Counted from the first letter of the stretch, positions 1 through 52,061 are shown. The stretch is DNA of 64,000 nt from a virus (IMGVR_UViG_3300018492_000150:1-64000), one strand, 5' to 3'. Numbers and translations are program-made. The notes: generated by a model from the letters alone, not told the origin.

Positions 1-897
1 CATAAGGATGAGCGTGATGGTTGCGAAAGCAGAAAAAAGTTGTCTGGATGATAATATGGTGAAATAAAAGCCTTATTCAGAAGGTCCTAAGTTATCGATA
101 ACAAGCCTTAGTTTAGCAGCGAAATATCGTAAATAAAAATAATATACACTTACATTAAAAGTGTATTATGAAAGGAGAATGAATATGATTAAAGATATAT
201 GTGGTTATGAAGATTTATATTCTATCAGTAGTGATGGGTATGTAATAAGTAAAATAACCGGAAAAATATTATCTCCTGGTATTAGGAGTGGATATAAATT
301 TGTAGTATTATGTAAAAGTCCAACAGATCATCAAAAATTTAATATTCATAGATTGGTGGCAGAACATTTTGTTCCTAATCCAGAAAATAAACCTATGGTT
401 ATGCATAAAAATAACAATAAACTTGACTGTAGAGCTGAAAATTTAATGTGGGGTACGGCCCAAGAAAATACGATTCAGGCTCATCTTGATGGATTGTGTT
501 GCGACAGAAGAAAAGATTATATACTATTTGATGGAGAGAGTGATATCATCAAGTGCCATGGTATAGATAGTGTATTAGAAAAAATTGAATATAATACCAC
601 AAGTAGAAGTTATGTGACTGGCATGGTAAAAAACGGAACTGAATTATCAAAGGGACCGTATGCTGGTTATGTTATAAAAAGATTAGAAAGACCTTTTGTT
701 TACGATATACGTTCAACGATCAGCCCTTGACGAGGGCGGCGAAAGCCTTAATGTAGAACCTCAAGCTAATGGAGGAAGAAAAATACAGCTCCTATATAAG
801 TATATAGGATGAACAAATGATCTATGCACGCTCTGTAATGGAGGTGACTAGGAATAGACCTAGCAATATAGAGTTGCGTCTATATTGAAATTTACAG
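1..897 (+). mobile_element. Group I intron (5' part outside window) interrupting the DnaB helicase gene
   Basis: Core elements GTTCAACGATCA (~711) and AATGATCT (~816) form P7 (GATCA/TGATC). ATATCGTAAA (~124) pairs with TTTACGATAT (~699), enclosing an HNH ORF. Three P9-type hairpins at 827-887. The helicase frame is open from 898; the 3' splice G at 897 is an estimate. Confidence 0.8.
185..730 (+). CDS. Intron-encoded NUMOD4/HNH homing endonuclease
   Basis: N-terminal KDICGYEDLYSISSDG (NUMOD4-like); IHRLVAEHFVPNPENKPMVMHKNNNKLDCRAENLMW (HNH_3 pattern); AGGAG upstream of ATG 185. Confidence 0.9.
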   Translation: MIKDICGYEDLYSISSDGYVISKITGKILSPGIRSGYKFVVLCKSPTDHQKFNIHRLVAEHFVPNPENKPMVMHKNNNKLDCRAENLMWGTAQENTIQAHLDGLCCDRRKDYILFDGESDIIKCHGIDSVLEKIEYNTTSRSYVTGMVKNGTELSKGPYAGYVIKRLERPFVYDIRSTISP

Positions 898-1761
898 AAT
901 ACTGTAGTTGAGACTATACAGAGATTATTTCAGATTTGTACAGGTGAGGAATTTGCAAAACAATCTTCTCCTCAAGAAGCGATTAACAAATTAAGGGCTG
1001 AGGGAGAATTATATTTAACAGATGAATCTCCTATAGATATTATAATAAAATTTGTTCCAAATAAATCAGTAGATACAAGTTATTTATATACACTTGTAGA
1101 GGATTTAGAGGACGAAGGATATGAAGTAGTAGCATTGTTACAAGACCATGCTAAACGTATTAGATCTACATTAAAAAATCCAGATGTACGTTTAGAGTTG
1201 GGTGATGTAATCAATGAATTTAAAACATTTGCAATGCTTAAAGATATTCCTGTTATAAGTAACTCTCATCTTAACAGAGAGGGTGCCAGAGTTATAGATG
1301 CAAATTCAGGAAAATCTAAAGCTGATTTAACAAGAATGCTCGGAAAAAGTAATATTGGAGAATCATTGTTGATGCTTGATAATGTAGATTATGCATGTAT
1401 TATTAACTATGAGTATGATAATGAAAATCAGAAATATATGGTATTTAAAGAAATCAAAACTCGTGTCAAGACATTTAGAGATTATGTATGTCAACCATTT
1501 GATATCAATAATGAGATCAAGTTAGTTGAAGATTATTATTCTCCTATACCTGTATTTAAAGATACTTTATATTCTGCTCCTGTATTGAATGCTGGAACAC
1601 CTAATATTCCGAATGTATCTGCAAATAATAGTAGATATGTGAATAATATTCCAGTAGATGATGAAGATCAGAATATCTATGAATTTAGTACACGTTATTC
1701 TTCTATAAAAGAAGAACCGAAGAATTTGGTGAGACCTTTTACGTTTGACGTTGCGTCTTAA
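898..1761 (+). CDS. dnaB: DnaB-like replicative helicase, 3' exon
   Basis: Frame reads NTVVETIQRLF...LLQDHAKRI...FKTFAMLKDIPVISNSHLNRE...GES...DNVD, matching SF4 helicase motifs. Confidence 0.8.
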   Translation, partial: NTVVETIQRLFQICTGEEFAKQSSPQEAINKLRAEGELYLTDESPIDIIIKFVPNKSVDTSYLYTLVEDLEDEGYEVVALLQDHAKRIRSTLKNPDVRLELGDVINEFKTFAMLKDIPVISNSHLNREGARVIDANSGKSKADLTRMLGKSNIGESLLMLDNVDYACIINYEYDNENQKYMVFKEIKTRVKTFRDYVCQPFDINNEIKLVEDYYSPIPVFKDTLYSAPVLNAGTPNIPNVSANNSRYVNNIPVDDEDQNIYEFSTRYSSIKEEPKNLVRPFTFDVAS

Positions 1762-1873
1762 AATGAAAAGAAAGTTCCAGTAGTGCGTAACAGCACTACT
1801 GGACACCAAACATAACACAGAGGATTAAAAAATACACCAATTTCAAAATACAACTTATACCCTTACTGCATTG

Positions 1874-2332
1874 TTAAGATTCATATATTTCAAGATTGGT
1901 TCTATTTAATACAATATGTCTTCTCTCGGCATTATATATATCATTCATAAACATAGCAAGATGGGAAGGAGTAAGAGCAAAGAATCTATTTTCATCTAAA
2001 GTAAATTCTTTTAAATTACACATACCGTTCATTGCTAGTATAATAAAATAAGCTTCAGTTGATCCATATATATCGTATGATAATAATTTAGGTTTATATT
2101 GATACTTAATTTTATCATCCATGCCAACTGTAACTATTTTTCTATATTGTTTTAACTCATCCATGTATCCATAGATTACATTATCTATTGCATATACTAA
2201 TTCGGGATGGGTTAAAGATCTTTCCATTATTGAGTATTTTGGATATGTAACTTTATCTGAATCTTTTAAAGAGATAAATTGATCTAACGTATAAGTCTCT
2301 TGAGGTTCTGATATTTGATTGAATACTGACAT
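1874..2332 (-). CDS. Putative baseplate wedge protein (T4 gp53/LysM-like)
   Basis: YKPKLLSYDIYGSTEAYFIILAMNG resembles the gp53-type motif. Confidence 0.55.
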   Translation of the reverse strand: MSVFNQISEPQETYTLDQFISLKDSDKVTYPKYSIMERSLTHPELVYAIDNVIYGYMDELKQYRKIVTVGMDDKIKYQYKPKLLSYDIYGSTEAYFIILAMNGMCNLKEFTLDENRFFALTPSHLAMFMNDIYNAERRHIVLNRTNLEIYES

Positions 2333-2676
2333 TAATCTTCATACCTCCTTAATATTGATGGTTTGTTTATATCTCCACCTATGAATATTAATATAACTTT
2401 ATCTCCTTTATCTAATGATTTGATATCACTAGGTAAAGTCATAGTTATATAATTTGATATAGTACAAGGAGATATATACATTGCTGTTTTATCTGATATT
2501 ATATTGCTAGTACTTATAGCTAATTCTTTATTATCATAAGCTTGGTCTAATGGTAATGTAGGAGTAGCTATAGGTATAGCTATTTTAACTTTTGGTCCAT
2601 TTGTTTTTTCCATGCAAATGCCTATTTCTGGATATTTAAAATCGGTATTTGCTTCTTTATAAAAATCACTGGTCAA
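2332..2676 (-). CDS. Putative baseplate hub/spike OB-fold protein
   Basis: C-terminal KGDKVILIFIGGDINKPSIL resembles the gp5/gpV OB-fold motif; AGGAGG before the TTG start. Confidence 0.5.
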   Translation of the reverse strand: MTSDFYKEANTDFKYPEIGICMEKTNGPKVKIAIPIATPTLPLDQAYDNKELAISTSNIISDKTAMYISPCTISNYITMTLPSDIKSLDKGDKVILIFIGGDINKPSILRRYED

Positions 2677-2738
2677 TATTTACACCTCCTGAAACACATT
2701 AATATATAGTTTTGCGATTAAACCGAAAGGAGTCTATT

Positions 2739-4404: not shown

Positions 4405-4470
4405 TATTCTCAATAATCGTATATTATACTATTGATAAAGAATATTAATATTTTAAGGAGGATTTTTAAA

Positions 4471-4920
4471 ATGGAAATGATTAAACCTTTTACAAGACCA
4501 GAAGAGAATATAGAGGTCAATATTGAAAAGAAAGATACTGTTCATAAAGAAGAACAGCCTAAGTTAATTAAACCTTTTACTAGAGTAGAAACTCCATCTA
4601 CTAAATTGTACTTAGTATTGAAGTATTATGATGAAAAAGATTTAGATGGAGAGGAGATTAGAGATTTTGAGTTCTTTGAAGGAACATCTCAAGATCTTTA
4701 TGATTATCTTAAAGCAGAGATTGAAGCTGATTCTGATACTCAGTTAGATGTAATGAGATCTAGAATTTTAGTAGACAGCCCAAAGATTTCAATATCCCAT
4801 AAATGCTCAGTATACATGTTTATGAAGGATTTAAGAAATAGAGGAGTAGTAATGGACGATACAAGTTTTGATATCGAAGACTACTTCTATTCATTTGAAA
4901 ACGAAGAGAAAGGAGAATAA
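4471..4920 (+). CDS. Acidic hypothetical protein with two N-terminal IKPFTR motifs
   Basis: AAGGAGG RBS; TATATTAT motif upstream. Confidence 0.75.
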   Translation: MEMIKPFTRPEENIEVNIEKKDTVHKEEQPKLIKPFTRVETPSTKLYLVLKYYDEKDLDGEEIRDFEFFEGTSQDLYDYLKAEIEADSDTQLDVMRSRILVDSPKISISHKCSVYMFMKDLRNRGVVMDDTSFDIEDYFYSFENEEKGE

Positions 4921-9389: not shown

Positions 9390-9965
9390 ATGGGTACTAA
9401 TGAAATTATCGAAGAAAAAACCGAAGATGAGCGGACAGATGTGAGGAGGATGGTTGATTTTAAACGAGGGCAGATTTATATCTGCACGCTTGATGATTAC
9501 AGAGTAACTCAGAGCGGAGAGCATCTGTTTTCTAAAACTGGGTTAATTGGCAAATCAAGACCGTGTATGATATGGTCAAATGATGATTATAACAAGGATA
9601 GTAGAAATACTTATACTATTATTCCCATTAAGTCCAATCATACAAGTTTATCTACAAAACAATATATTCAAGAATCTTATGATATTCTTGTTCCTATTTG
9701 GATAAATGGAGTAGAGAAATTTTTAGCCGTAAGCCAAGCTAGACCGATTAATGCTATAAATATTAGATCTTATATGGGTACAATAACTAATCAAGAAATT
9801 TTAGATGAAGTAGATAAAGCATTTTTGGTAAACCATATGAGAGATAAGAAAATAATGGAGCAGATTTTTTACAAGTATGGCAATGTTGAAAATATTATAG
9901 AATTTCTTAATTCAAATAAAGCATATAATTGCTATCTGAATTATGTGAAGAGAGGGAAACAATAA
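9390..9965 (+). CDS. PemK/MazF-family endoribonuclease-like protein
   Basis: KRGQIY...GKSRPCMIWSNDDYN...TIIPI...SQARPI...YMGTI...LDEVDKA follows the MazF pattern. Confidence 0.7.
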   Translation: MGTNEIIEEKTEDERTDVRRMVDFKRGQIYICTLDDYRVTQSGEHLFSKTGLIGKSRPCMIWSNDDYNKDSRNTYTIIPIKSNHTSLSTKQYIQESYDILVPIWINGVEKFLAVSQARPINAINIRSYMGTITNQEILDEVDKAFLVNHMRDKKIMEQIFYKYGNVENIIEFLNSNKAYNCYLNYVKRGKQ

Positions 9966-10438
9966 TGTATGTAGCTAATTGGTATACCATACCAGGATTT
10001 ACTTCATATGAAATAAATATTCATACTAAAGATATACGATCTTTGAAGCACTATAAGAAAGATTGTTTTCATATTATGAAAGTATACGACGATGGTAATG
10101 TTAGGATAGTCGATGATACAGGAAAGCCTACCAGGATATCTCCAGAAGAAGCATATGATTTAACTTTTAATTCTGGATATGAATTAGTTCCTAGAGAAGA
10201 TGGTGCTGTATATAAAAGTGGAATGGTAAAAGGTATGAGGAAGATGAAAAGTAATGTTGATGTGATAAATGGAACTGTTGAAAATCTTCCTATAAAACCA
10301 GAAAAATTTCAAATATATGATTTTTATGAAAATTACACTATAGATGATAGTGATGATGAAGAAACTGTTATTCCTGATTATATGAAATTATTTGAGCAAC
10401 CAAAGATTAAACCATTCGTAATAAATCCCAAAAACTGA
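9965..10438 (+). CDS. NUMOD4-like domain protein
   Basis: WYTIPGFTSYEIN...IRS; no HNH catalytic motif visible; C-terminal KIKPFVI. Confidence 0.5.
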   Translation: MYVANWYTIPGFTSYEINIHTKDIRSLKHYKKDCFHIMKVYDDGNVRIVDDTGKPTRISPEEAYDLTFNSGYELVPREDGAVYKSGMVKGMRKMKSNVDVINGTVENLPIKPEKFQIYDFYENYTIDDSDDEETVIPDYMKLFEQPKIKPFVINPKN

Positions 10439-10477: not shown

Positions 10478-12859
10478 ATGAGTGAAGAAATTATTGAACG
10501 AAACTCGGTCGAACAATATAAAATGGATATGGTTCGATACAGTATAGAAACAAACAGGAGACGTGCGTTTCCTGATTATAAAGATGGACTTAAATTAGTT
10601 CATAGAAGAATTTTATATGCTATGGCATTTGATTTAGCATCATTTAAATCACTTGTCAAAACAGCCCAGGTTACTGGTAAAGTAATGGGAGAATATCATC
10701 CGCATGGTGATAGTAGTATTGATAATGCTATTGAGATTTTATGTAACTGGTGGTCTACTTATGTTCCTCTCATTGCATCTGAATCAAGTATGGGTTCAAT
10801 GCAGGGTGATGGTGCAGCCGCTTCACGTTATACTGAAGTAATGCTATCAGACTTTGCAAGAGAAGCTATATTTGCTGATATGAAAGAGAATCAGAATATA
10901 GTAGACTGGACGCCAACCTATACAAACAAAGATAAGGAACCAGTATATCTTCCAGTAGCAGTTCCATTGTTACTCATCAATGGCTGTCTCGGTATTGGTA
11001 CTGGTAAATCTACTTCAGTTCCAGCTCATAATATCAATGAAGTTATTGATGCTACATTGAATCTTATTGATAATCCAGATGCTCCAGTAGTGTTGATTCC
11101 AGATCAATGTATGCCGTGTGAAATCATTGAAGCTAATTGGAAACAGATATCTAACTCTGGAGTTGGTACTTTTAAAGTAAGAGGTATTATTGATATTGAA
11201 ATTAAAGACAAAGGTAAATCAAATGAACACTATGCTCTTGTAGTTAAGAGTAAACCTGATAGGGTTATTATTGATGACGGAAAAGAGAACGGTGTGCATT
11301 ATCAGATCAATGATCTTGTAGAGAAAGGTAAACTTCCTCAGATTACAGATCTATATGAGAACTCTCATGGTAAAGACCTTAGATATGAGATTCATCTTAA
11401 AAAAGGAGCAGATCCTAATTATGTTAGGGATTATCTATATAAAGCAACTTCACTAGAGACAACGCAGTCAGTAAACTTCGAAGTTCTTGATGATATTGAA
11501 ATGATGAGAATGTCTTATAAATCTTACCTCCAAGCATTCATCGAGCAGAGAAAGATTACTAAGTTTAGAAAATATTGTATCAAATTACAAGACGCAAGAA
11601 CTAAACTTCACGAGACAGAGATTTGTATTATGCTTATTAAGACAGGTAAGATCGATGATATCTATAAGAGAATAAGAAAATCTAAATCTAAAAATGATCC
11701 TGAACTTCTTGATTGGATTATGAAGTTTTTGAATATCACTGACTTGCAGGCCAAGTTTGTAATCAACTACCCTCTTAAGAATCTTACACCAGCTCACTTA
11801 GCTTCATATGAAGAACAGGCTGCTAAAATTAGAGAGGTTGAACAACAGTGTATGAAAATCATTCTTGATGAAAGATTGATCTTGCAAGAGATTAAAGATG
11901 ACTTGATTTACTTTAAGAACAAATATGGTTTTCCTAGAAAATCTAAAGTTCTTAGTCAATCTAAGATTTCCAATATCCCGAAAGGAACTTTCAATGTAGT
12001 TATTACTGAAAATAACTATATTAAGAAACTTCCTGTAAATGAATCTATTGGTTCTTATAGAGGAGATAATCCTGTGAGAGTTATTAGAATTGAAAATACG
12101 AGTGATCTTATTTTAGTCACTTCTCAGGGAAGAGGATTTAGAGTTCCTGTAAGTAAAATACCTATTACTGAAAGAAACTCTATTGGATTAGATGTACGAA
12201 TTATGATCAAAGGAATCTCATCAAATATTGTAGCGATGTTCGATGGTGATCTTGTATCTAAGTTATCTAATCTTAAACAGAAACATTATGCTGTATTCTG
12301 TACAGAACAGAATTATATAAAAAAGCTCGATTTAAAAGATATTCTTATTGCTACCCCTAGTGGTATCATCATGACTAAACTTAACTCAGGAGATCAAGTT
12401 AAGGATGTTATGATTGCGCCAAATACAAGGGATCTGGTGATCTATTCTAAGAAGAAAGCTTTGAGATGTAAGCTTACAGATATTCCTAATTATAAGAGAA
12501 ATACGTTAGGGGTATATGCAATGAATACTAAAGATCCTATTGATGGTATTAGTATCATTGATGAAAATGCAACCGATATTGTAGTTATTACAGAATCAGG
12601 AAAAATTAACAAGTTCGATATTGCAGGATTACCAATGTCTGAAAGATATAAAGCTGGTAATACGGTTATCAAATTAGGAAAGATGGATACAATTCATTCA
12701 TTATTTAGTGTAAATGATTCGAACGCTCTTCATATTCTTACACGGAATAATAGAATCGATATCCCTGTAAATGAAATTCAACGGACTTCATCTATATCTC
12801 CAGGATCTAAAAAGATACCGATGAAAGGTGATAATATTATAAAAATTACCGTTGAATAG
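10478..12859 (+). CDS. gyrA: Type IIA topoisomerase A subunit (GyrA/ParC-like)
   Basis: DGLKLVHRR, YHPHGDSS, catalytic AASRYTE, beta-pinwheel C-terminal repeats. Confidence 0.95.
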   Translation: MSEEIIERNSVEQYKMDMVRYSIETNRRRAFPDYKDGLKLVHRRILYAMAFDLASFKSLVKTAQVTGKVMGEYHPHGDSSIDNAIEILCNWWSTYVPLIASESSMGSMQGDGAAASRYTEVMLSDFAREAIFADMKENQNIVDWTPTYTNKDKEPVYLPVAVPLLLINGCLGIGTGKSTSVPAHNINEVIDATLNLIDNPDAPVVLIPDQCMPCEIIEANWKQISNSGVGTFKVRGIIDIEIKDKGKSNEHYALVVKSKPDRVIIDDGKENGVHYQINDLVEKGKLPQITDLYENSHGKDLRYEIHLKKGADPNYVRDYLYKATSLETTQSVNFEVLDDIEMMRMSYKSYLQAFIEQRKITKFRKYCIKLQDARTKLHETEICIMLIKTGKIDDIYKRIRKSKSKNDPELLDWIMKFLNITDLQAKFVINYPLKNLTPAHLASYEEQAAKIREVEQQCMKIILDERLILQEIKDDLIYFKNKYGFPRKSKVLSQSKISNIPKGTFNVVITENNYIKKLPVNESIGSYRGDNPVRVIRIENTSDLILVTSQGRGFRVPVSKIPITERNSIGLDVRIMIKGISSNIVAMFDGDLVSKLSNLKQKHYAVFCTEQNYIKKLDLKDILIATPSGIIMTKLNSGDQVKDVMIAPNTRDLVIYSKKKALRCKLTDIPNYKRNTLGVYAMNTKDPIDGISIIDENATDIVVITESGKINKFDIAGLPMSERYKAGNTVIKLGKMDTIHSLFSVNDSNALHILTRNNRIDIPVNEIQRTSSISPGSKKIPMKGDNIIKITVE

Positions 12860-34849: not shown

Positions 34850-35032
34850 ATGCCTGATAAAAATATATACTGCGATATGGCTACATATATAGAAGAGGAG
34901 TATATTTGTTGGTACACGGGTCGTCCGTGTACCATCTCTCCTATTCCTAATAAGTATCTATGCCATACATATGACAGTAATGTACAGAAACATAATAAAC
35001 ACAGAGAGGAGAAAAACGTCAATGGAAAGTAA
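34850..35032 (+). CDS. Small Cys-containing hypothetical protein
   Basis: AAGGAGGT RBS; four Cys. Confidence 0.55.
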   Translation: MPDKNIYCDMATYIEEEYICWYTGRPCTISPIPNKYLCHTYDSNVQKHNKHREEKNVNGK

Positions 35033-37235
35033 TTTCAGTCAAGACATTAAACAGAATGCGGAGAGATTAAACAGCAAAGAAGAAATTTTAGGAAAAGGGT
35101 TATGTCAACCGTTTGTCGACTGTAATTCTGGATCAAGAAAACTTATGTTTTCTATTCATATGGAACAATCATTACCTCTTGTTCATCCAGAAGTCCCATT
35201 TGTAATGACTGGTTATGAACAAGAATATGGAGATAGATCTTCATCTATTATTAAAGCTGATACTGATTATGAAGTTGTGGCAAAGGTATCTAAGTTTGCT
35301 GATGCTCCACAGCACCATTATTTCTTAATCTTAAGAAATATCCATAACAATAAACTCAATTTTATTGAGAGAAAAGAATATACTCATTCAACAGAGACGT
35401 ATGGATATGCTTATGACAATACCGTTCTTGATAATTTGGATATTTCGTACGAAGTTCCAAAAGATGAATTATTGAGAAAATCAACAGCATTTGACCAGAG
35501 TATGAATCCAATGGATAGTGTAAACTTACTTGGAACTTATGTGGCTACTGATGTAACTATGGAAGACAGTATCTGGTTATCAGAATCTGCAAGACAAAAG
35601 TTAACGTCAAGATTATATAAGAGAGTAACAGTAAATATCAATGATAATGATATCCTTCTTAATCTTATGGGAGATGATGATCATTATAAGAGTTTTCCTA
35701 TGATCGGTGAATCTATTAAAAATGGCATTTTATGTGCAGTAAGACGAGAGAAGATTGAAGATTCTTTATTCACTCAGTCAGTAAGTATGCTTCAGAATAT
35801 TCTTATGTCTGATGATAAATACACTCCAGGTGAAAATGGAATAGTTATTGATATGGATATTCATTGTAATAATCCTGAGATTTTAAAAGAGAAGTACTCT
35901 AATTCTCAGGTTCTATATTGTTATAATGACCATATTAGGTTTATAACTGAGTTTGTTAGCACTATTGACAGACTTAAGAAACAATATAATCTTATCGACA
36001 CTGATTTAGACTATCATTTAGGTAAGATGTATTACAACTTTAAAAGAGAATTGGATGGAGTTCAGTTTAGAAATCAGAAAGTCTATAGCGGTATTGTTAT
36101 CGACTTTATTGTAAAAGAATTGAATATTCCATCTACAGGAGATAAATTGGCAAATAGATATGGAGGAAAAGGTGTTATCGCTAAAGTACTTCCAGATGAT
36201 CAGATGCCAAGATTGACTCTTACAGATGAACCTATTGAGATCCTTATCAATAGTTCAACTTGTATTAACCGTGAGAATATTGGACAGTGGCATGAAATGT
36301 CACTCACTCATGTCGGTAAATGTATTACTGACTTAATTAAATTAGGATACTTTGATACAAATGAAGCGTTTCAGGAAATTATTAAATTCTTGGGATTCTG
36401 TGCACCTAAGGAAGCTCAAGATATGGTACAATATATCAATGCGTTATCTAGTGAAGAAAGAGATATTTTCTTACAGTCTATTGTAGATAGTGGAAATATT
36501 GTATTATCTATTCAACCTATGACAGAATCAATGAGTCTTGATATGCTTGCAGAGTTATACAAAGCATTTGATTATGTAACTCAGAGAAGAATAATGATGC
36601 CATTAGAATCATCTACTGGACAGATTAGATTTGTACCAGCAAGAAGACCTGGAGTTGTTGGTCATATTGCAATGTACAGATTACAGCAGTATGCTGAAGA
36701 GAAACATTCAGTTACTTCATTATCTTCTACTAACCTTAGAAATGAGAATAGTAGAAATAAAGCTAATAAGTATTATAAGTCTACACATCAAGCTACTCCT
36801 GTAAACTTTGGAGATATGGAATGTGGAGACCTTGGTCATATTGGATTTGAAAATGTAATCACAATGCTGATGATTCATTCAGTATCACCACATGCAAGAC
36901 GACTTGTAGAGAACATGTTTATTGATGATCCGTATTTGGTAGATATTAAACTTGATGAAAATTCAAGTAATCGTAGTGCAGAAATATTAAACACATATCT
37001 CAAGTCTATCGGGTATAAACTCGAGTTTGAAAAGGTTAGAAAGAAAACAACTAAACCGTTTACTAGAAAACCATTCACTATTACAAGAGATACAAGTATA
37101 AAACCATTTATACAAGTAGATAAACAGATTATCCAGAATATGGAAGATTATCTTAACTGGATGGCTGCTTGTGAGGCTGCTGCTAGAAAGAAACCTTTCA
37201 AGTATAGACCATTCACCTACAGAGATGATAAATAG
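35022..37235 (+). CDS. RNA polymerase beta subunit, C-terminal half (probably non-virion RNAP)
   Basis: MEDSI, GDKLANRYGGKGVI, INRENIGQ, FGDME. Confidence 0.92.
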   Translation: MESNFSQDIKQNAERLNSKEEILGKGLCQPFVDCNSGSRKLMFSIHMEQSLPLVHPEVPFVMTGYEQEYGDRSSSIIKADTDYEVVAKVSKFADAPQHHYFLILRNIHNNKLNFIERKEYTHSTETYGYAYDNTVLDNLDISYEVPKDELLRKSTAFDQSMNPMDSVNLLGTYVATDVTMEDSIWLSESARQKLTSRLYKRVTVNINDNDILLNLMGDDDHYKSFPMIGESIKNGILCAVRREKIEDSLFTQSVSMLQNILMSDDKYTPGENGIVIDMDIHCNNPEILKEKYSNSQVLYCYNDHIRFITEFVSTIDRLKKQYNLIDTDLDYHLGKMYYNFKRELDGVQFRNQKVYSGIVIDFIVKELNIPSTGDKLANRYGGKGVIAKVLPDDQMPRLTLTDEPIEILINSSTCINRENIGQWHEMSLTHVGKCITDLIKLGYFDTNEAFQEIIKFLGFCAPKEAQDMVQYINALSSEERDIFLQSIVDSGNIVLSIQPMTESMSLDMLAELYKAFDYVTQRRIMMPLESSTGQIRFVPARRPGVVGHIAMYRLQQYAEEKHSVTSLSSTNLRNENSRNKANKYYKSTHQATPVNFGDMECGDLGHIGFENVITMLMIHSVSPHARRLVENMFIDDPYLVDIKLDENSSNRSAEILNTYLKSIGYKLEFEKVRKKTTKPFTRKPFTITRDTSIKPFIQVDKQIIQNMEDYLNWMAACEAAARKKPFKYRPFTYRDDK

Positions 37236-37605: not shown

Positions 37606-40041
37606 ATGATATCTTTAAAAGAGATACTACAGCAATTAAAGTCTGGTAATTTTTCAGCAGCTTATGATAATATAGAATTCATAAATGAAAGAGCTATGGA
37701 AATATTGAATTATCCAGACGATTCTATCAAGAATACAAGTTCATTATTAGATGATTTAACCAATCTTATTTATATTGGTAATATTACGTATAACTATAGC
37801 GATTCTGATGTATTGCCGATAGATGATGGCATATATGATCTATTGATTGCCCAGTTGCAGCGTATAGATTATAATCGTTGTCCTGTAGGAGCGATACCTA
37901 TCGATACTATCAATGTGAATGATAAGTATTCTCCAAAACTTGATTCTGATGAACCTATTAAACCGTTCACAAGAATGACTACTGAGGATATGATTAAATT
38001 GGAAGAAAGTTTCTATCCATCTATCCTCAATATGAACAAAGCATTTGACCCAAGAGCTAATATGGAGAAGCCTTTTATACGATTAGGTGTAAAAGATTCT
38101 TATATAAGTAAAAGGGTTAGAACCGTTTCTCATAATTATCCTAATCTTGTGGGTACTCTTGAGAAGTGCAAGTTTGTTTTAGATAAACAGGCTATTGATT
38201 TAGGGGTATTTGAAGATTCGAATGTCACTGTATTAGAAAGAGACTTCTTTGTTCCATTATTGAACAGAGGTTTGATTGATTATAATACTCCAATTCAAAT
38301 GATTGGTACTCTTAAGTATGATGGAGTATCTATAGAGGCAGATGTAAATACAGAGATTATATCTGCAAGAACAAGAGGAGATACTGATTTAAACGAAGCT
38401 AGTGATTTAACGCCTATCTTCGAAGGTTATAAGTTCCCTAATGCTAGAGAATTATCTGAACCTATCGGTATGAAATTTGAAGCTATTGTACTATATGATG
38501 ATTTAAAGAAACTTAATGAGTTATATGGTACGAATTATATCAATGGAAGAACAGCTATCATTGGATTATTAGGATCATCTGATGCTAGAGCTTTAAGAGA
38601 TTTTATAACTCTAGTTCCATTACAATGTGATTTTGGCCCAGATGTTGTTAAACCTGATAGGGTTACAGAAATACAATTTCTAAATAAATATTATGCAAAC
38701 AGAGAGTATTTGAGATGGGTTGTTATTGAGGATACCTATACCAATTTATTATTCAGAATTAAAAAGTACGTGGAAGAGGCAGAGTATTTTAGAGCATGGT
38801 CTAGATTCATGTATGATGGCGTGGTGCTTGAATTTACAGATCCATATCTTGTAAATACTTTAGGAAGAAAGAACTCTATCAACCAATATGCCATGGCAGT
38901 TAAGTTTAATCCATTAAAAAGAATAACTACCTTTACCGGATTCACTTATACTGTAGGACAGAACGGAGCAATAACTCCAATGATTCATTACACTCCAATA
39001 GAATTTCTTGGTTCTATTCATACTAAGTCTACAGGATCATCATATGAAAGATTTAGAGATCTAAATCTATTCATTGGTGATAAGATTGAAGTGACTTATG
39101 TAAATGATGTGATGCCGTATGTCAATAAACTTGATATAGATGCAAATACTCAAAATCATTTACGAGAACCAAATCCAGAAGAAATGTTTCCAACTCATTG
39201 TCCTTGTTGCGGAACAGAACTTGTAGAATCAGCTAGGGGTAAAACAATGTATTGTCCCAATATGAATTGTGAAGAGAGACAAAATCAGAGACTTACTAAT
39301 ATGCTTAGTAAGTTAGGAGTTAAGAATTTCTCTCAAGCAGTAATAGAAACATTAGGGTTATATACTTTGAAAGATTTCATGAATTGTTCTACAGATGATT
39401 TAGCGGTACTTGGACCTACAAATAAAGTTAAGTTCTACGAAGAGCTTCATAAATTAAGAACAAATCCGTTACCTGATTATATGGTAATTGGAGCTCTTGG
39501 GTTTACTAATATTGCTTCTAAGAAATGGAAGTTGATATTCAGTAATATTAGTCTAGAGAGATTATATATGTCATATATTCAGGAAAATGCTAATCCTGAT
39601 ATGTTTACGATTATGTCTACTTCTGGAGTTGTATATAACTCTTTAGAAGATTTTATATCAAATATAAAAGGAGTAGGGCCTATCACTGCAAAAACTATAT
39701 GTGAAGAGTTCGACTTCTTTATAAAAGATATAGATTATATAATATCTAATAGATTATATAGAGAAACTCCTATAGGTAATTCTGAAGAAAAATACCAGAT
39801 TAGATTCACAGGATTCAGAGATAAACAGTTAGCTGAAGTTCTTAACAAATTTCCATTCATTGATTGTGATGGAGATGCAGGAATTACAAAGAAGACAACA
39901 ATACTATTAGTACCGTTCAAGGGTCATACTTCTACTAAAGTAACTAAAGCTTTAAAGTATGGAGTTAAAGTAGTAGATGTAAAAGAATTTCTAGAACATC
40001 CTGGTTTATATATACCAGAGATGGACGATGTAGAAATTTAA
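37606..40041 (+). CDS. ligA: NAD-dependent DNA ligase
   Basis: KYDG, TRGD, YDGVV, AVKF, VGQNGAITP, CPCC...C...C zinc finger, HhH and BRCT (FTG). Confidence 0.93.
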   Translation: MISLKEILQQLKSGNFSAAYDNIEFINERAMEILNYPDDSIKNTSSLLDDLTNLIYIGNITYNYSDSDVLPIDDGIYDLLIAQLQRIDYNRCPVGAIPIDTINVNDKYSPKLDSDEPIKPFTRMTTEDMIKLEESFYPSILNMNKAFDPRANMEKPFIRLGVKDSYISKRVRTVSHNYPNLVGTLEKCKFVLDKQAIDLGVFEDSNVTVLERDFFVPLLNRGLIDYNTPIQMIGTLKYDGVSIEADVNTEIISARTRGDTDLNEASDLTPIFEGYKFPNARELSEPIGMKFEAIVLYDDLKKLNELYGTNYINGRTAIIGLLGSSDARALRDFITLVPLQCDFGPDVVKPDRVTEIQFLNKYYANREYLRWVVIEDTYTNLLFRIKKYVEEAEYFRAWSRFMYDGVVLEFTDPYLVNTLGRKNSINQYAMAVKFNPLKRITTFTGFTYTVGQNGAITPMIHYTPIEFLGSIHTKSTGSSYERFRDLNLFIGDKIEVTYVNDVMPYVNKLDIDANTQNHLREPNPEEMFPTHCPCCGTELVESARGKTMYCPNMNCEERQNQRLTNMLSKLGVKNFSQAVIETLGLYTLKDFMNCSTDDLAVLGPTNKVKFYEELHKLRTNPLPDYMVIGALGFTNIASKKWKLIFSNISLERLYMSYIQENANPDMFTIMSTSGVVYNSLEDFISNIKGVGPITAKTICEEFDFFIKDIDYIISNRLYRETPIGNSEEKYQIRFTGFRDKQLAEVLNKFPFIDCDGDAGITKKTTILLVPFKGHTSTKVTKALKYGVKVVDVKEFLEHPGLYIPEMDDVEI

Positions 40042-41489: not shown

Positions 41490-43226
41490 ATGAGCAACAA
41501 CATAGGACAATTTCAATTTATCAGAGAGTTTAACGATAAAAACAGAACTCCATTCAACGATAAATTGTTTGACAGATCAGATGATGAAATCATCAATGAA
41601 CTAAAGAAAGTTATTTTATCTTGTGAAAGAAGTAAATACTTTACTCTTAAAGTGCAGAACTTCTTTGTAGTAGATGATTATCCTACTATGATGAAGATGC
41701 TTAGAGAACAGGAGAAAGTAAAATCAGATTCAAAAGATAAAGATTTCAATAGATATGATTATATTGCATTGAAAGATTCTGATATAAGACTTTTGGTAGT
41801 TGACTATTTTATCAAAGTAAAATACCCAAAAAAAGAATCTTTAGGAGAGAAAACTCTTCGTGTATTAATCATGGTTCCACGATTTGTGGATAAATATTAT
41901 TTCAAGATATTTGGGAATTACTATTGCCCTAAATATCAGATTGTTGATGGTTCTACCTACAACAACGCAAATAGTAACGCTAAGTGCCAGAATGTGACTT
42001 TCAAATCATTATTCATGGCAACACGTATTTATAAATATAACGCAGACTTTAAATTTATCAATACTCCAGTTGCAGTTAAAGGAAACTTTTATCAATCTGC
42101 TATATTTAACAAAAGTGTACCAGTAATGAAATATATTCTTGCAAGATATGGATTGCTTGGTTCTATGAATGCTCTTGGTGTTCCAGAATTATATATCCAT
42201 AACGAAGATCCTAAGAATGATAATTGGTATACTCTTAAACAGCACAATGTGTATATTTCTATACCAAAATTCTTATTTGATAATGACGTAGTAGCTCAGA
42301 GTTTAATGTATACTGTATATCTTGGTATCACAAACAAAGAGTTCACTGCAGAAATGGTTTGGACAACAGAGTTTTGGTTAAGATCATTAGGTGAGTCTTA
42401 TAGTAATAAGACTCCAGAAAAAGGAATGTCTGTATTAGAGTCATTAGAGTCTATCTATGATATTCCTACAAGAGAAGCATTGAGACTTCCAGATCAATAT
42501 AAGAAAGATATTTATCATGTATTGATCTGGATTATCAGAGAATTTTCTGAATTGAGAAAGAAAAATAATCTTGATGTTGGTACTAAGAGAGTAAGACTTG
42601 CAGAATATATTGCAGCTCTCTATGCATTGAAATTATCAAACGGAATGTTTTCATTCTCTGAGGAAGGTGATAAGATTCAGGTATCTCAAATTGAGAAGAG
42701 AATCTTTACTTTTCCAGATTATCTTCTTAAAGCTATTTCTAGAGATAGAATCATGGCAAGCAAGAATAATGTAAATGACATGGATGCTTTCAGTGCTATT
42801 AAATGGACATTTAAAGGAGTATCTGGATTAGGGGATTCAAAAGATTCGGCTATCCCGCAAGGTTATAAGCAGGTACATCCATCTCATCTTGGAAGAATCG
42901 ATTTGGATTCATCATCGCCTAATGATCCAGGTATGTCTGGAATGTTATGCCCTATGGCTCCAATATTCGATAATTATTTCTCTGATTTTAGTGAACCTAA
43001 TAACTGGAGAGAAGATGTAAGAAATATGCTTCTTGAATATCGTAAGATGAAAGGGTTAAAAGAAGTATTTACATTCCAGAAAGAGATTGGGATTATTCCT
43101 GACGATACAGCAGAAGGGACTGTTGATGAAACTATTGATATTGTAGAGAAAAGAATTGTACCTTTCATTATCCAAGTAGATGAAAGAATGCTTGATATTT
43201 CTCCAGTAAAATTTAGCGAGGTGTAA
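41490..43226 (+). CDS. RNA polymerase beta subunit, N-terminal half (probably non-virion RNAP)
   Basis: KRVRLAE, QVHPSHLGRIDLDSSSPNDPG (beta region D). Confidence 0.85.
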   Translation: MSNNIGQFQFIREFNDKNRTPFNDKLFDRSDDEIINELKKVILSCERSKYFTLKVQNFFVVDDYPTMMKMLREQEKVKSDSKDKDFNRYDYIALKDSDIRLLVVDYFIKVKYPKKESLGEKTLRVLIMVPRFVDKYYFKIFGNYYCPKYQIVDGSTYNNANSNAKCQNVTFKSLFMATRIYKYNADFKFINTPVAVKGNFYQSAIFNKSVPVMKYILARYGLLGSMNALGVPELYIHNEDPKNDNWYTLKQHNVYISIPKFLFDNDVVAQSLMYTVYLGITNKEFTAEMVWTTEFWLRSLGESYSNKTPEKGMSVLESLESIYDIPTREALRLPDQYKKDIYHVLIWIIREFSELRKKNNLDVGTKRVRLAEYIAALYALKLSNGMFSFSEEGDKIQVSQIEKRIFTFPDYLLKAISRDRIMASKNNVNDMDAFSAIKWTFKGVSGLGDSKDSAIPQGYKQVHPSHLGRIDLDSSSPNDPGMSGMLCPMAPIFDNYFSDFSEPNNWREDVRNMLLEYRKMKGLKEVFTFQKEIGIIPDDTAEGTVDETIDIVEKRIVPFIIQVDERMLDISPVKFSEV

Positions 43227-43228: not shown

Positions 43229-43531
43229 ATGGCTAAATGTAATGCATGTGGAAAAGAAATGTTAGATCATGTTTCATGTGATTATAACTTTGTAACTGAT
43301 GGTAAAGAAATTAGAAAAAGAATAAAATGTGGAGATCCAAAAGATCTCCACAATATATCCCCAGGTGAAACTTGTTATGACTGCGGAGCTCCATATGGAG
43401 GTTATCATCATATTTATTGTGATTCAGAAACATGTCCGATATGTGGAGGTCAGTTATTATCTTGCGATTGCGAAATTTATTATACAAAGATTGGTAATAT
43501 ATCTACAAAACCATTTGTATATGAAAAGTGA
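43229..43531 (+). CDS. Cys-rich zinc-binding protein
   Basis: CNAC, CYDC, HHIYCD, CPIC, SCDC. Confidence 0.75.
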   Translation: MAKCNACGKEMLDHVSCDYNFVTDGKEIRKRIKCGDPKDLHNISPGETCYDCGAPYGGYHHIYCDSETCPICGGQLLSCDCEIYYTKIGNISTKPFVYEK

Positions 43532-44953: not shown

Positions 44954-45695
44954 TGAAATTTATAATGGATTCGTAGAGATTTTAAAAAGAGGACCAGAAG
45001 AAGAAATTGAATATATGAAGAAAGATAAAGGTAGAGTTCCTCACCTGCTATCTTTACTGTATGACTTCGATCCTCTAACTATAGTTAGAGTTAAAACTAT
45101 CAAGATGTCAGAAGGTCCTGATATCGTATTGGTTTTGGCATCTTCGCCAGATCATAATCCGAATATCAAATATATTGAATATCTTACACTTGATGGAAGA
45201 TTGAGTAAGTTAATACTGATCAATATAGACGCACTGATGTCGGAAGAAGACAAAGATGGTTATTCTAGAACAGCTATCTATTCAATTGCATCTTCATTGC
45301 GTAGTGCTATTTCTGGAGTAATGAATTATCATCTTAGAGGATTAGATGATAATATGAGCGAAGTAAGATACATGGGAAGATTTGCTAAACTTATGTATTA
45401 TGCTTCTCCCATCATGATAGTAAAACTTCTTGATAGAATATATGGAGATGGTAAAATAGGAGATGTTGAGATGACAGCAATGTTAGCTGCTATTCATAAT
45501 ACTCCAGATAAAATCAGCATTCAGACTATACAGTCTATTAGAGATCTGTTGAAAGGAACTTCTCTATATGATCTTCTTGACAACAGTTTATTATTAGCTG
45601 CTGATGAAAAGGCATATCCAGGATTATTCTATCAGGATACTGATGAAGATGATACTACAGATATCGAAGAGGGTGATGACGATACGACCGTTTAG
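44946..45695 (+). CDS. Hypothetical protein with acidic tail
   Basis: GGAGG RBS. Confidence 0.7.
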   Translation: MFNEIYNGFVEILKRGPEEEIEYMKKDKGRVPHLLSLLYDFDPLTIVRVKTIKMSEGPDIVLVLASSPDHNPNIKYIEYLTLDGRLSKLILINIDALMSEEDKDGYSRTAIYSIASSLRSAISGVMNYHLRGLDDNMSEVRYMGRFAKLMYYASPIMIVKLLDRIYGDGKIGDVEMTAMLAAIHNTPDKISIQTIQSIRDLLKGTSLYDLLDNSLLLAADEKAYPGLFYQDTDEDDTTDIEEGDDDTTV

Positions 45696-45966
45696 TTATG
45701 ATAGGGCAGATACATGTCCATTATGCGGAGAGAATAGATCGGTAGAAGCTTATACAGTTAATGATAAACCTGTTCAGTTAAGTTTGTCTATAGATAGAAA
45801 TAGAGAGCTAACCGGTTTAGGAATTAAATATCTTAAGTGTAGAAGTTGTAAATCAGAATTCTTCCCAATGTGGTTACATAATCATCCATACCCTATGATA
45901 GATATAAACTATTCATACTTTATGAATGGATATATTCAAAGTTTAAAAACATCAGAGACTGTTTAA
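45676..45966 (+). CDS. Zinc-ribbon protein
   Basis: CPLC...CRSC; begins MTIRPF. Confidence 0.65.
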   Translation: MTIRPFSYDRADTCPLCGENRSVEAYTVNDKPVQLSLSIDRNRELTGLGIKYLKCRSCKSEFFPMWLHNHPYPMIDINYSYFMNGYIQSLKTSETV

Positions 45967-48963: not shown

Positions 48964-48977
48964 ACCATTATGTTGGA

Positions 48978-49970
48978 TTAATATTCATTCATCAGAGGTT
49001 GTCCTATCAGTACCAGTGGATAGGTTTCTCCAATATTGATATTTCTTGCCACTTTATTCTTCAAATCTATTGTAATATCTTCTAAGAACATAGCATCATG
49101 TTTCTCTGCATTAGGAACAGACTGCCCTGTAGACATATCAATTACATCAAAATATCTTGCACCATTTTCCTGGTTATATACAACAACCTGCTGTATATTA
49201 GGATTTTCTTCAAGATGCATCATATTCTGTTGAGGTGTTAAATTATTTAAATAATTAGCAAAGTTTTCTTCCTGAGACCCTATTGCCATTGTCTGTACAG
49301 GAGAGCCTGCTATCGCCATCTGACTTACATTAGGGAATGGGTTTGTTGAAACAGGAGTATTTACAAATGCTTTATACATTTCCATAACTCTTTGATCATC
49401 ATCGCCATCGTTAGCTGCATTCGCTGCTTTGATTTCTTTGTATCGTTTCATCTCGAAATCATTACATTTAGAAATGGTATTATTTAATTCTCTCGCTGCA
49501 GATATTTTATTTGCAATCATAGTACCCATACTACCTTGTAATAAAGATAAATATTGGTATTTATTTCTCATTGTTTTTGAATGACGAATATCTTCAATAT
49601 CCCCCTGAAGTTCTGTCATTGTAGAATCAAGCTGAACAATTGCAGATCTAAGGATATTGTTAGTTTCCTGATATTTCTTTTCATATGGCTCGTTTGTTTC
49701 CATAAAAGATAATTCACGTTTACTTTTATCATCACCCACGTCAAAATTTTCTGCAACTTGCGTCATATGAGAAGGACTAGAAAACAATGATATCCCTGAT
49801 CCAGCATCATTCTTTCTAGGTCTTCCTCTTTTTTTCTTTCCAGTAGAAGTAGTTTCTTCTACATCTGATGCCATAATAGGGACATCTATAGATTTAGTAA
49901 AATCTATAATAATAGAACCATCAGTAGGTTGTTCTATTTTTGTTTCTATTTCTCTAGTAAATGGTTTCAT
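48978..49970 (-). CDS. Coiled-coil protein with AT-hook
   Basis: KKKRGRPRK; starts MKPFTR after GGAGG. Confidence 0.75.
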   Translation of the reverse strand: MKPFTREIETKIEQPTDGSIIIDFTKSIDVPIMASDVEETTSTGKKKRGRPRKNDAGSGISLFSSPSHMTQVAENFDVGDDKSKRELSFMETNEPYEKKYQETNNILRSAIVQLDSTMTELQGDIEDIRHSKTMRNKYQYLSLLQGSMGTMIANKISAARELNNTISKCNDFEMKRYKEIKAANAANDGDDDQRVMEMYKAFVNTPVSTNPFPNVSQMAIAGSPVQTMAIGSQEENFANYLNNLTPQQNMMHLEENPNIQQVVVYNQENGARYFDVIDMSTGQSVPNAEKHDAMFLEDITIDLKNKVARNINIGETYPLVLIGQPLMNEY

Positions 49971-50099
49971 TACTAATACCTCCAATTCTTATAAATCATT
50001 AATTTGATGTGTAAACCATATAATTGTAATTTTACAAGCAGAATTACATATAAATAATACATAATTGCACCAGAACTGGGCAAGATAGGAGAGGTTATT

Positions 50100-52061
50100 A
50101 TGGCGCTTTTAACAAGACATCCGAATGGATCTGATTTAACAATTTTAAATACTTCGTATCATTATCCAAGAAGAGATGAAGATACAGGTAAATATAATAA
50201 AGATTTTATTACAGTTGTGTATAAAGATAATATAACAGGAACAAAACATCATGAGATTATCTATGAACCGAATTATAGATTTTATCAAGCTAACGATGAT
50301 GTGAATATAGAACATAATATGTTTTATATTAGTAAAGATAAAGTTCATCCTATGGAATGTAAGTTTTCTGAATTACAGAAAACAATAGCAGAAGTAACTG
50401 GAAATTTAGATTTCTTCTATGAGAATATTAAAACTGGAAATAGAAGAGCTAATAGAGCTTTAAATACGATACCTAGTATTTTTAGTAGTGATGTAAATAT
50501 TGAAGATCATTATAGAGCTAGATTTGCTCAAGATTATGTAAATGAAGTTCATCCAGTAACTAAAGGATATTTCGATATCGAGGTTGATACTAAAAGAATG
50601 AGAGGAGATTTCCCTCAAATGGGAGAATGCCCTGTCAATGCAGTATCATATATAGATGATAAAACTAATACAGTTAATGTGTTCTTATTAAGAGATATCG
50701 AAGGAGATAATCCTTTGATAGAAGAATTTGAAACATCAAATTTTAGTAATCAACAATCTGCCCAACAGTTATTTCAAGAACTTCAACAGTTCATAATTGA
50801 TAATGTTGGAGGTCCAGAGAAAGCAAAGAAATTTGGAGTTGATAATTTAAACTTTCAGTTCATGTTTTTTGATGATGAAGTTAAATTATTATATACATTA
50901 TTCCAAGTTATAAATTCAAATTCTCCAGATTTCATGTTAGCATGGAATATGGCATTCGATATTCCTTATATAATAGAAAGATGTTATACTTTAGGTATAG
51001 ATCCGGCAATGGTATTATCTGCAATGGATTATGTTGAAAAGTATGCTACCTATTATATAGATGAACAGCATAGGAATGAATATGAATTAAGAGGAGATTA
51101 TTATGATATCGCTGCAGATACAGTATATCTTGATCAGTTAGTTCAGTTTGCTTCTAGACGAAAAGGTCAAGCAGCATTCCCAAACTTCAAGCTTGATACG
51201 GCTGCGGATATTATCACTAAAGGAGCAGTAAGAAAGTTAGACTATAGTCATATTACCACAAATCTTACAGAGTTGCCTTATAAAGACTACAAGACATTTG
51301 TTTTTTATAATATCATGGATACAATTGCTCAGAAATGTATCGAAGTAACTGTTGAAGATGTAGATTATATCTATGCGGTTAGTGTAGATAATGATACACG
51401 ATACTGTAAAGGTCACAGACAAACAGTATATCTTACTAATAGAACTAGAAAGTTCTTTTATAGTAAAGGATATATTTTAGGAAATAACTGTAATAGCGGA
51501 GAATCATCTCACTATGCAGGCGCATTAGTAGGAGATCCAACTCATAATAGCGATTACGCTAAATTAAAAGATGGAGATCAGACATATAATATTGTAGATA
51601 ATAGTGATGACTTTGACTTTAAAGCTCTATATCCGAGTGTTGATAGAGAAAATAACTTAGCACCTGATACTATTATCGGAAAGATTCTTATAGATGAACC
51701 TGTTCATAATTTAGAGAATCCGTATCATGATGAAGATTATGATAGAGGAGGACAATTTATTGAAGATCTTGTAACTGGAAATAATCTTGAATTTGGTAAG
51801 AGATGGTTAGGATTAGCTGACGTGAATGAAATGCTCAAAGATATTGATGAATACTTTGAAGTTCATAATCCGTTTAGACCTGTTAATGTATTTACTGAAT
51901 CTGGAAATATCAAACCATTTATCTTTATGCCTAATATTAAAGACGGAGAAATGACAAGACCGTTTATAGTATTGGAAGAAGACGAAATGGTACGTCCATT
52001 TGTACGACATAACGGAGATAAAGATGAAATGGTGAAAAGTGTACTTGATAGTATATTATAA
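50100..52061 (+). CDS. Split family-B DNA polymerase, exonuclease plus motif A part
   Basis: Exo I FDIEVD, Exo II AWNMAFDIPY, Exo III YNIMD, motif A DFDFKALYPS; motifs B and C absent. Confidence 0.9.
   Translation: MALLTRHPNGSDLTILNTSYHYPRRDEDTGKYNKDFITVVYKDNITGTKHHEIIYEPNYRFYQANDDVNIEHNMFYISKDKVHPMECKFSELQKTIAEVTGNLDFFYENIKTGNRRANRALNTIPSIFSSDVNIEDHYRARFAQDYVNEVHPVTKGYFDIEVDTKRMRGDFPQMGECPVNAVSYIDDKTNTVNVFLLRDIEGDNPLIEEFETSNFSNQQSAQQLFQELQQFIIDNVGGPEKAKKFGVDNLNFQFMFFDDEVKLLYTLFQVINSNSPDFMLAWNMAFDIPYIIERCYTLGIDPAMVLSAMDYVEKYATYYIDEQHRNEYELRGDYYDIAADTVYLDQLVQFASRRKGQAAFPNFKLDTAADIITKGAVRKLDYSHITTNLTELPYKDYKTFVFYNIMDTIAQKCIEVTVEDVDYIYAVSVDNDTRYCKGHRQTVYLTNRTRKFFYSKGYILGNNCNSGESSHYAGALVGDPTHNSDYAKLKDGDQTYNIVDNSDDFDFKALYPSVDRENNLAPDTIIGKILIDEPVHNLENPYHDEDYDRGGQFIEDLVTGNNLEFGKRWLGLADVNEMLKDIDEYFEVHNPFRPVNVFTESGNIKPFIFMPNIKDGEMTRPFIVLEEDEMVRPFVRHNGDKDEMVKSVLDSIL

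Follow-up and report, generated by a model that had tools for sequence, protein, structure and literature searches.

A lineage-specific peptide tag on the DNA and RNA machinery of an uncultured jumbo phage and a clamp-fold protein as its candidate reader

A virus contig of 113,639 bp from IMG/VR (IMGVR_UViG_3300018492_000150), of which the initial 64 kb are the window analyzed here, encodes proteins that carry a short peptide tag with the consensus [IVM]-[KR]-P-F-[TVI]-[RFIVY]. The tag has a hydrophobic and aromatic core, and is located in flexible termini or loops of many DNA-transaction enzymes. Its carriers are the non-virion DNA and RNA machinery of the phage. In a related genome the tag is replaced by another peptide on several unrelated proteins in concert, which points to one reader that co-evolves with it. 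We consider the chances about even that the tag is a docking motif for one phage-encoded partner, most likely a 202-residue protein with a predicted sliding-clamp fold that resembles gp45 of phage T4. The contig has a G+C content of 31% and a CheckV completeness of 46%. Since near-identical contigs extend up to 160–168 kb, and distant relatives that are 95–100% complete have lengths of 210–265 kb, the contig is a fragment of the genome of an uncultured jumbo phage.

The abundance of the tag was evaluated in the 114 open reading frames (ORFs) of the whole contig, using 2000 within-protein shuffles of residues. The core [KR]PF is present in 30 copies, whereas 6.1 are expected. [KR]PF[TVI] is present in 25 copies, with a shuffle mean of 1.24 and a maximum of 6, and [IVMTL][KR]PF[TVI] in 19 copies, with a shuffle mean of 0.37. 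This excess over background bears out a first-pass annotation of the window, which had identified the motif from the sequence, and every instance that it listed is present. Relaxed copies, in which His or Val replaces the basic residue, also occur (IHPFYF and IVPFII). In an unbiased ranking of tripeptides, PFT, RPF, and KPF occupy ranks 3–5, behind HTH and AAA only. The HTH excess, and part of the AAA excess, originates from a tail fiber protein (60084–63314, minus strand) with many repeats that contain an S-x-H-T-H motif; the same repeat holds half of the AAA copies. Of the 25 copies of [KR]PF[TVI], 21 are within 60 residues of a terminus, a zone that contains 38% of all residues (binomial p = 4e-6). 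The copies are encoded by different codons (CCT, CCA, or CCG for proline, TTT or TTC for phenylalanine, and AAA, AAG, AGA, CGT, or CGA for lysine or arginine), which indicates selection on the peptide and not on the DNA, and rules out a DNA-level repeat. The tag consensus fits none of the patterns QL[SD]LF, Qxx[LIM]xx[FY][FY], and SLDFLF, in agreement with the first-pass annotation, which had set the motif apart from QL[SD]LF and from the LDFLF-type motifs of T4.

The tag was compared among 43 related loci around the polymerase gene and two complete relatives, a sister genome (G002) with a polymerase 65% identical and a more distant genome (G003) with a polymerase 54% identical. In G002, PFT and KPF are the top two tripeptides and RPF the fifth, and 24 copies of the tag are distributed over 18 proteins, with 21 of them at most 70 residues from a protein end. 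The G002 orthologues retain [KR]PF[TVIY] at equivalent places, including TKPFII in the orthologue of a 169-residue protein, and additional carriers are a PD-(D/E)XK nuclease and zinc-ribbon proteins. In G003, where seven orthologues have the replacement, the peptide [KR]LFxKI is present at the equivalent sites of the DnaB C-terminus, the N-terminus of a 162-residue protein, and the insertion of the DNA ligase. The orthologues of the 162-residue protein contain LVKPFTV and LERPFTT in G002 and IPLMQKIE in G003, and those of the ligase contain VKPFTI and YKPFYT in G002 and KRLFEKI in G003. [KR]LFxKI is likewise found at the equivalent sites of the polymerase tail (three copies), the C-terminus of the beta-prime subunit of RNA polymerase, and a helicase tail (two copies) of G003, and the N-terminus of a 335-residue protein has only a looser match (LIRLM).

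In about 15 further lineages, the polymerase tail has two to three copies of a peptide that is the lineage's own, such as NAF[IS], GMxY, Q+[IV][IV]xFN, R[IE]MC, EPM[IV]F, or FM[VT]R, and outside this tag the tails differ both in length and in sequence. Over 17 lineages, the N-terminus of the neighboring 335-residue protein has a peptide that matches the polymerase tail, with a closer match within a genome than between genomes (permutation p = 0.0007). The concerted respelling on many unrelated proteins implies one co-evolving reader; neither chance, nor a pocket conserved in hosts, nor a signal in the DNA can account for it. It strongly supports the first-pass annotation in its proposal of a phage-specific linear motif that binds one hub; a lack of conservation in orthologues, which that annotation had counted as evidence against the motif, is not observed, because G002 keeps [KR]PF and G003 exchanges it in concert. 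The probability that the tag is a chance, compositional, or DNA-level artefact is negligible: nothing more than the low-complexity look of some tails speaks for it, whereas none of the 2000 shuffles came near the observed count, the codons vary, and the orthologous sites are kept in G002 and replaced together in G003. The closest cultured phages are AR9/PBS1, the Staphylococcus S6-like phages, and Yersinia phage phiR1-37, with a protein identity of only 27–32%, and on inspection the polymerase and non-virion RNA polymerase tails of AR9 (gp132, gp089, and gp105) displayed no obvious shared tag.

The N-terminal half of the DNA polymerase (ORF 50100–52061) contains a family B exonuclease domain, matches the partial polymerase of AR9, and carries the tags IKPFIF, TRPFIV, and VRPFVR (51909–52007; this and the following tags that are given with positions are on the plus strand unless stated otherwise) in its C-terminal 50 residues. 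The C-terminal half of the polymerase, which matches positions 453–681 of Pfam divDNApol, is encoded about 26 kb from the N-half gene (contig positions 77760–79421, L001:14760–16421), and contains one internal [KR]PF that is uncertain as a tag. The NAD-dependent DNA ligase (ORF 37606–40041) has two tags, IKPFTR (37957–37974) and EKPFIR (38065–38082), in an N-terminal insertion. The tag VRPFTF (1729–1746) is positioned eight residues from the C-terminus of a fragment of a DnaB-like helicase (ORF 1135–1761, 208 residues), which is 77% identical to residues 364–582 of the 582-residue divDNAB protein of G002. Only the C-terminal part of the helicase is present, and the gene of an HNH endonuclease (ORF 161–730, NUMOD4 and HNH_3 domains) is located upstream of it; an intron or mobile insertion seems to split the helicase gene, with the upstream exon off the start of the contig. 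This endonuclease has the tag ERPFVY (686–703) 12 residues from its C-terminus.

The non-virion RNA polymerase carries the largest tag array. Five copies, TKPFTR, RKPFTI, IKPFIQ, KKPFKY, and YRPFTY (37050–37220), are within the 60-residue C-terminal extension of the C-terminal half of the beta subunit (ORF 34971–37235), a homologue of AR9 gp089. The N-terminal half of the beta subunit (ORF 41490–43226), a homologue of AR9 gp105, has the relaxed tag IVPFII (43155–43172) near its C-terminus, and the context of this tag, KRIVPFIIQVDE, resembles the third copy of the beta tail. A 294-residue RNA-polymerase-related protein has one tag at its N-terminus. Beyond the window, there are seven more carriers of the motif, six of which have it within 20 residues of an end. 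The C-terminal half of the beta-prime subunit, a homologue of AR9 gp154, contains one copy, a ResIII helicase contains two in its C-terminal tail, and two further HNH endonucleases contain one copy each, so that three tagged HNH endonucleases are encoded in the contig.

The remaining carriers are small proteins and a putative DNA-binding protein. The 162-residue protein (ORF 4432–4920), which belongs to no known family, has two copies of IKPFTR (4480–4497 and 4567–4584) in its N-terminal 50 residues. The 169-residue protein (ORF 9929–10438), also of no known family, has IKPFVI (10406–10423) eight residues from its C-terminus, and a 155-residue protein (ORF 27708–28175), which belongs to phrog_5018 of unknown function, has the relaxed tag IHPFYF (28146–28163) at its C-terminus. 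TKPFVY (43505–43522) is located six residues from the C-terminus of a 100-residue cysteine-rich, zinc-ribbon-like protein (ORF 43229–43531), and IRPFSY (45682–45699) forms residues 3–8 of a cysteine-rich protein of about 96 residues (probable start 45676, end 45966). The 335-residue protein (ORF 48978–49985), the gene of which and the polymerase gene are transcribed divergently, has MKPFTR (49953–49970, minus strand) as residues 6–11, and contains an AT-hook-like stretch, KKKRGRPRK.

The location of many of the tags a few residues from an N- or C-terminus is typical of degrons, which are exposed short terminal peptides. The tag could accordingly serve as a degron or as a processing or packaging signal, for example in the timed proteolysis of early and middle proteins. 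We regard this as highly unlikely because tandem arrays of three to five copies and the internal copies in the ligase insertion would be unusual for a degron, some of the carriers are enzymes required during the whole of replication and late transcription, a host protease as reader would not be expected to result in lineage-private respelling, and no phage protease is linked to the carriers.

The tag is absent from the virion and metabolic proteins: portal, sheath, fibers, NrdD and NrdG, dUTPase, guanylate kinase, and PhuZ-like tubulin. The first-pass annotation had noted its absence from these proteins other than the sheath. A 245-residue protein similar to the RNA polymerase beta subunit, the phiR1-37 homologue of which (g203) is annotated as structural, is also untagged. 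The [KR]PF sequences at residue 370 of the GyrB-like protein and residue 90 of the UvsX-like protein which the first-pass annotation had not listed, were rejected as tags; they are internal, and because they are conserved even in a lineage that has a different tag, they are structural. The first-pass annotation had also counted a PRPFT inside the 202-residue protein (52564–52581, plus strand) among the instances of the motif; this sequence is not conserved in relatives and probably arose by chance.

The candidate reader of the tag, the 202-residue protein, is encoded on the plus strand at positions 52429–53037, directly after the polymerase gene, and has no Pfam or PHROG family (E <= 0.01 or 0.001). 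Its structure was predicted with AlphaFold2 from an alignment of 21 sequences, with a pLDDT of 91.8 and a pTM of 0.86. The model consists of two tandem clamp domains, formed by beta-alpha-beta-beta-beta repeats, that extend across the whole chain. In a Foldseek search, sliding clamps account for almost all of the top matches of the model, at weak E-values. In an exhaustive independent structural search of 48,161 chains, clamps and viral processivity factors make up all of the top 37 matches. T4 gp45 ranks first, in complex with a ligase peptide (6drt_A), with a Z-score of 9.4, 171 of the 202 residues aligned, and a root-mean-square deviation of 3.8 Å, and the first unrelated fold in the ranking has a Z-score of 3.4. 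A feature search in the Protein Atlas returned unrelated sub-threshold leads only.

The gene of the clamp-fold protein immediately follows the polymerase gene in 42 of the 43 related loci, in some of them with an overlap at the end of the latter, and the relatives searched have a single copy of it. The protein family comprises at least 131 homologous clusters, none of which is named; they originate from metagenome collections, and one cluster is also found in NCBI. A Pfam match (PF04326) is present in only 1 of the 120 clusters listed. Longer fused forms of the family were not found, which is weak evidence. The clamp-fold proteins of the contig and G002 are 46% identical, compared with 65–68% for the neighboring proteins, and the gene therefore evolves faster.

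In four loci (L020, L023, L035, and L038, around positions 11775–12750), the 3′ end of the polymerase gene and the clamp-fold ORF overlap in different frames, and in three others (L008, L010, and L013) the ORF is in the polymerase frame, one to two codons past the stop. This is a tight coupling of the two genes that may extend to translation. In L010, a natural in-frame read-through would join the polymerase tail, one stop codon (glutamine in translation table 6), two codons, and the clamp-fold gene. When this read-through product was folded as a single chain, the clamp part had a pLDDT of about 90 and all three tags were below 50, with no ordered docking; this only indicates that the polymerase tail is predicted to be flexible, and is uninformative about binding. 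A complex prediction for the clamp-fold protein and residues 590–653 of the polymerase, run without controls, gave a score of 0.00 and speaks neither for nor against binding. Contigs from RNA libraries of two studies span the polymerase tail and most of the clamp-fold gene, which is no proof of transcription. The spacer between the two genes contains a 92-residue minus-strand ORF (52102–52377) that has no homologue in the related loci. Two other gut samples yielded contigs in which an unrelated 295-nucleotide segment takes the place of the spacer between nearly identical flanking genes.

The resemblance of the list of tagged proteins to the clients of T4 gp45, together with the clamp fold encoded after the polymerase gene, favors a clamp as the hub. 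In T4, linkers of the polymerase, ligase, gp33, and gp55 hold short motifs to which gp45 binds, and gp45 also serves as an activator of late transcription (PMC7892883). We propose that the tag, [IVM]-[KR]-P-F-[TVI]-x, docks from flexible termini and insertions of the non-virion DNA and RNA machinery, and that all its copies are read by a single phage-encoded partner. The co-evolution of this reader with the tags would cause each lineage to spell the tag differently. As the reader, the clamp-fold protein would bind DNA and offer a pocket for the tag, to which the three-tag tail of the polymerase would dock to provide processivity. The ligase, helicases, nucleases, and small DNA-binding proteins would share the same pocket and form a tool-belt at replicating DNA. 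The late, non-virion RNA polymerase would be tethered directly by the tags on its beta, beta-prime, and accessory subunits. By this route late transcription may be coupled to replication, in analogy to the use of gp33 and gp55 by T4 gp45 and in parallel with the part that the clamp-derived chimallivirus subunit Rhc is reported to take in both processes (PMC13648687, PMC13648698). The tandem tags, three on the polymerase and five on the RNA polymerase beta subunit, may give avidity for a multimeric clamp. The homing HNH endonucleases seem to have taken up the tag as a means of access to replicating DNA.

The proposed network and that of T4 and RB69 gp45, which has its motifs on the polymerase gp43, the ligase gp30, gp33, and gp55, are alike in that gp45 is the best structural match of the candidate reader over its whole length, the polymerase (at its C-terminus), ligase, and late-transcription machinery have the tags on linkers or termini, the motif core is hydrophobic and aromatic, and a coupling of the clamp to late transcription is proposed. 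They differ in that the 202-residue protein has no sequence similarity to gp45, and the tag is unrelated to the SLDFLF-type motifs. Furthermore, the tags are on catalytic subunits of the phage multisubunit RNA polymerase and not on sigma-like adaptors, they are also present on a DnaB-like helicase and homing endonucleases, they form arrays of three to five, their spelling changes from lineage to lineage, and no loader similar to gp44/62 was found.

Several observations weigh against the clamp-fold protein as the reader. The tag with its enrichment, placement, carriers, and co-variation, and the predicted clamp fold with its synteny, are results of the analysis; the binding of the tag to the protein, its oligomerization, and the coupling of transcription to replication are inferred. 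The protein has no sequence similarity to the gp45, PCNA, or beta-clamp families, and its fast evolution need not reflect co-evolution with the tag. The topoisomerase II subunits, UvsX-like recombinase, Dda-like helicase, and SbcC-like protein act on DNA and are untagged, as is the RNase H of the relatives. To our knowledge, the classical clients of clamps do not include a replicative DnaB-type helicase or the catalytic subunits of an RNA polymerase. In addition, no RFC-like clamp loader was found by a PF00004 search of the contig, which is 46% complete, and its relatives. The search identified only the Dda-like helicase in the contig and classical AAA proteins in G002, G003, and a third relative, G005, with none above the cut-off in the 95%-complete relative G004. 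The G002 protein does not contain an RFC-specific domain. The clamp-fold protein may act as a monomer, like the processivity factors Rhc and UL42, or the loader may be unrecognizable. In G005, a complete genome, three consecutive genes encode classical AAA ATPases (G005:C1:35225–38093, loci L049 and L053; open frames of 335, 344, and 393 residues), compared with one gene each in G002 and G003; the G002 member, the only one tested with Pfam, is not RFC-like.

The co-variation implies a reader without naming it, and the tag could dock on another hub of the replisome. Candidates are the host beta clamp, a single-strand-binding protein or AAA+ machine of the phage, and the polymerase or helicase itself. 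Classical AAA ATPases are available in some relatives; however, their genes are not universal, and G004, with none above the cut-off, has three tags on its polymerase tail. The highly conserved pocket of the host beta clamp would not drive the respelling of the tag lineage by lineage, and the tag is unlike QL[SD]LF. Moreover, no further conserved candidate with a peptide-binding fold was identified beside the tagged proteins. We therefore judge another hub to be improbable.

Alternatively, the tag could be an address label that directs proteins to a replication compartment, which may be a shell, condensate, or membrane vesicle, and be read by an importer or scaffold other than the clamp-fold protein. 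The tagged set roughly corresponds to the proteins that need phage DNA, including the selfish HNH endonucleases, and metabolic enzymes, tubulin, and virion proteins are untagged; several copies of a label would raise the efficiency of import too. A PhuZ-like tubulin is encoded (weak match, E = 1.4e-4), and a split polymerase, divergent DnaB, and multisubunit RNA polymerases are shared with nucleus-forming phages. The contig has three features in common with its closest cultured phages and with chimalliviruses: multisubunit RNA polymerases of both the virion and the non-virion type, a divergent DnaB (Pfam divDNAB in the complete orthologue of the helicase), and a two-gene split family B DNA polymerase.

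In contrast, searches with the chimallin models phrog_4795 and PF25677 gave no match at E <= 1 in the contig and four relatives that are 95–100% complete. As a positive control, PF25677 finds PhiKZ gp054 at E = 0, and a very divergent shell protein could escape such a search. The closest cultured kin, PBS1/AR9, PALS_2, and phiR1-37, are reported to have no chimallin. Import into the chimallivirus nucleus depends on surface residues of the cargo and not on terminal signals (PMC12908238). Furthermore, topoisomerase II, UvsX, Dda, SbcC, and the clamp-fold protein itself, all of which lack a conserved tag, do not fit an address label. The failure to detect chimallin with a working control weakens the reading of the tag as a nucleus-import signal, and we consider a compartment label unlikely. 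Among the three hubs suggested by the first-pass annotation, the sliding clamp thus gains support from the clamp-fold protein encoded directly after the polymerase gene, and phage-nucleus import loses it. The system of nuclear import by PicA/Imp1 resembles the tag in admitting DNA-acting phage proteins and leaving metabolic and virion proteins out, and differs from it in the use of folded surface patches instead of terminal peptides and in the presence of chimallin, which was not detected in the contig.

A clamp-derived protein has been described in chimalliviruses. Their split polymerase works with the subunit Rhc (RNase H-clamp; PhiKZ gp155, and in Goslar), which also supports late transcription, binds the polymerase thumb as a monomer through a surface of about 1,800 Å2, and together with UL42 demonstrates that clamp folds can function as monomers (PMC13648687, PMC13648698; preprints of October 2026). 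No linear motif network is described in these preprints. The contig has the same division of the polymerase into DNAP-N and DNAP-C (architecture in PMC13648687), a divergent DnaB, and a clamp-derived accessory protein in a clade thought to be clamp-less. Unlike Rhc, the 202-residue protein is a stand-alone clamp fold without an RNase H domain at its N-terminus; RNase H is encoded in the relatives by a separate untagged gene of about 225–270 residues. No sequence similarity to PhiKZ Rhc was detected: the profile of the clamp-fold family matches gp155 with E = 0.63 and finds nothing in the PhiKZ record, and remote homology is possible. The matches of the profile to the AR9 genes at the same position, g131 and g129, have E-values of 0.23 and 0.14, neither of which is significant; the alignment to the C-terminal part of g129 is collinear, which is a mere hint.

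The PIP-box motifs of PCNA clients and the QL[SD]LF motifs of beta-clamp clients show conservation throughout entire domains of life, and some of them are tandem or multivalent. The tag resembles them as a short motif for one pocket, located in disordered regions of many DNA-transaction enzymes. It differs from them in its consensus, and in being private to a phage lineage and changing between close relatives. We found no published description of these tags or of the clamp-fold family in the literature. We propose that the novelty of the system is a clamp-client motif network that is lineage-private and co-evolving, and reaches the phage multisubunit RNA polymerase, DnaB, and homing endonucleases.

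If the clamp-fold protein is the reader, it would be the missing processivity and organizing factor of a large clade of jumbo phages, which were reported to lack a classical clamp in a survey from 2021 (PMC7824862). The tags on RNA polymerase subunits would then represent a second, independent wiring of late transcription to replication, in place of sigma-like adaptors. The lineages would provide natural orthogonal pairs of peptide and reader, one per lineage, useful for studies of the co-evolution of hub and motif networks. The tag is also a simple sequence rule for predicting DNA-acting proteins among the unknown proteins of these phages; here, the rule covers the 162-residue and 169-residue proteins, the zinc-ribbon proteins, and the 335-residue AT-hook protein. 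More tentatively, it is possible, if doubtful, that a large clade of jumbo phages from gut and rumen, which are uncultured, runs all of its DNA machinery on a private, fast-evolving peptide code that is read by a clamp-fold hub to which the RNA polymerase is tethered, that the respelling forms an incompatibility barrier between co-infecting relatives, and that homing endonucleases copy the code to gain access to the DNA; or else that the tag is the first linear targeting signal of a non-chimallin compartment.

Metagenomes of bovine, canine, and other animal guts, from 12 studies in all, contain DNA of the contig. The PhuZ-like tubulin is encoded at positions 31340–32554 and was recognized by its PHROG match, in a clade without detectable chimallin. 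The anaerobic ribonucleotide reductase NrdD is encoded in two ORFs, 20918–22195 (profile positions 1–395) and 22558–23400 (profile positions 424–711), separated by a gap of about 360 nucleotides that is probably an intron. An ORF of 485 residues (15772–17229), the C-terminal part of which matches the transposase family phrog_4285 (E = 5e-28), is located amid replication and nucleotide-metabolism genes.

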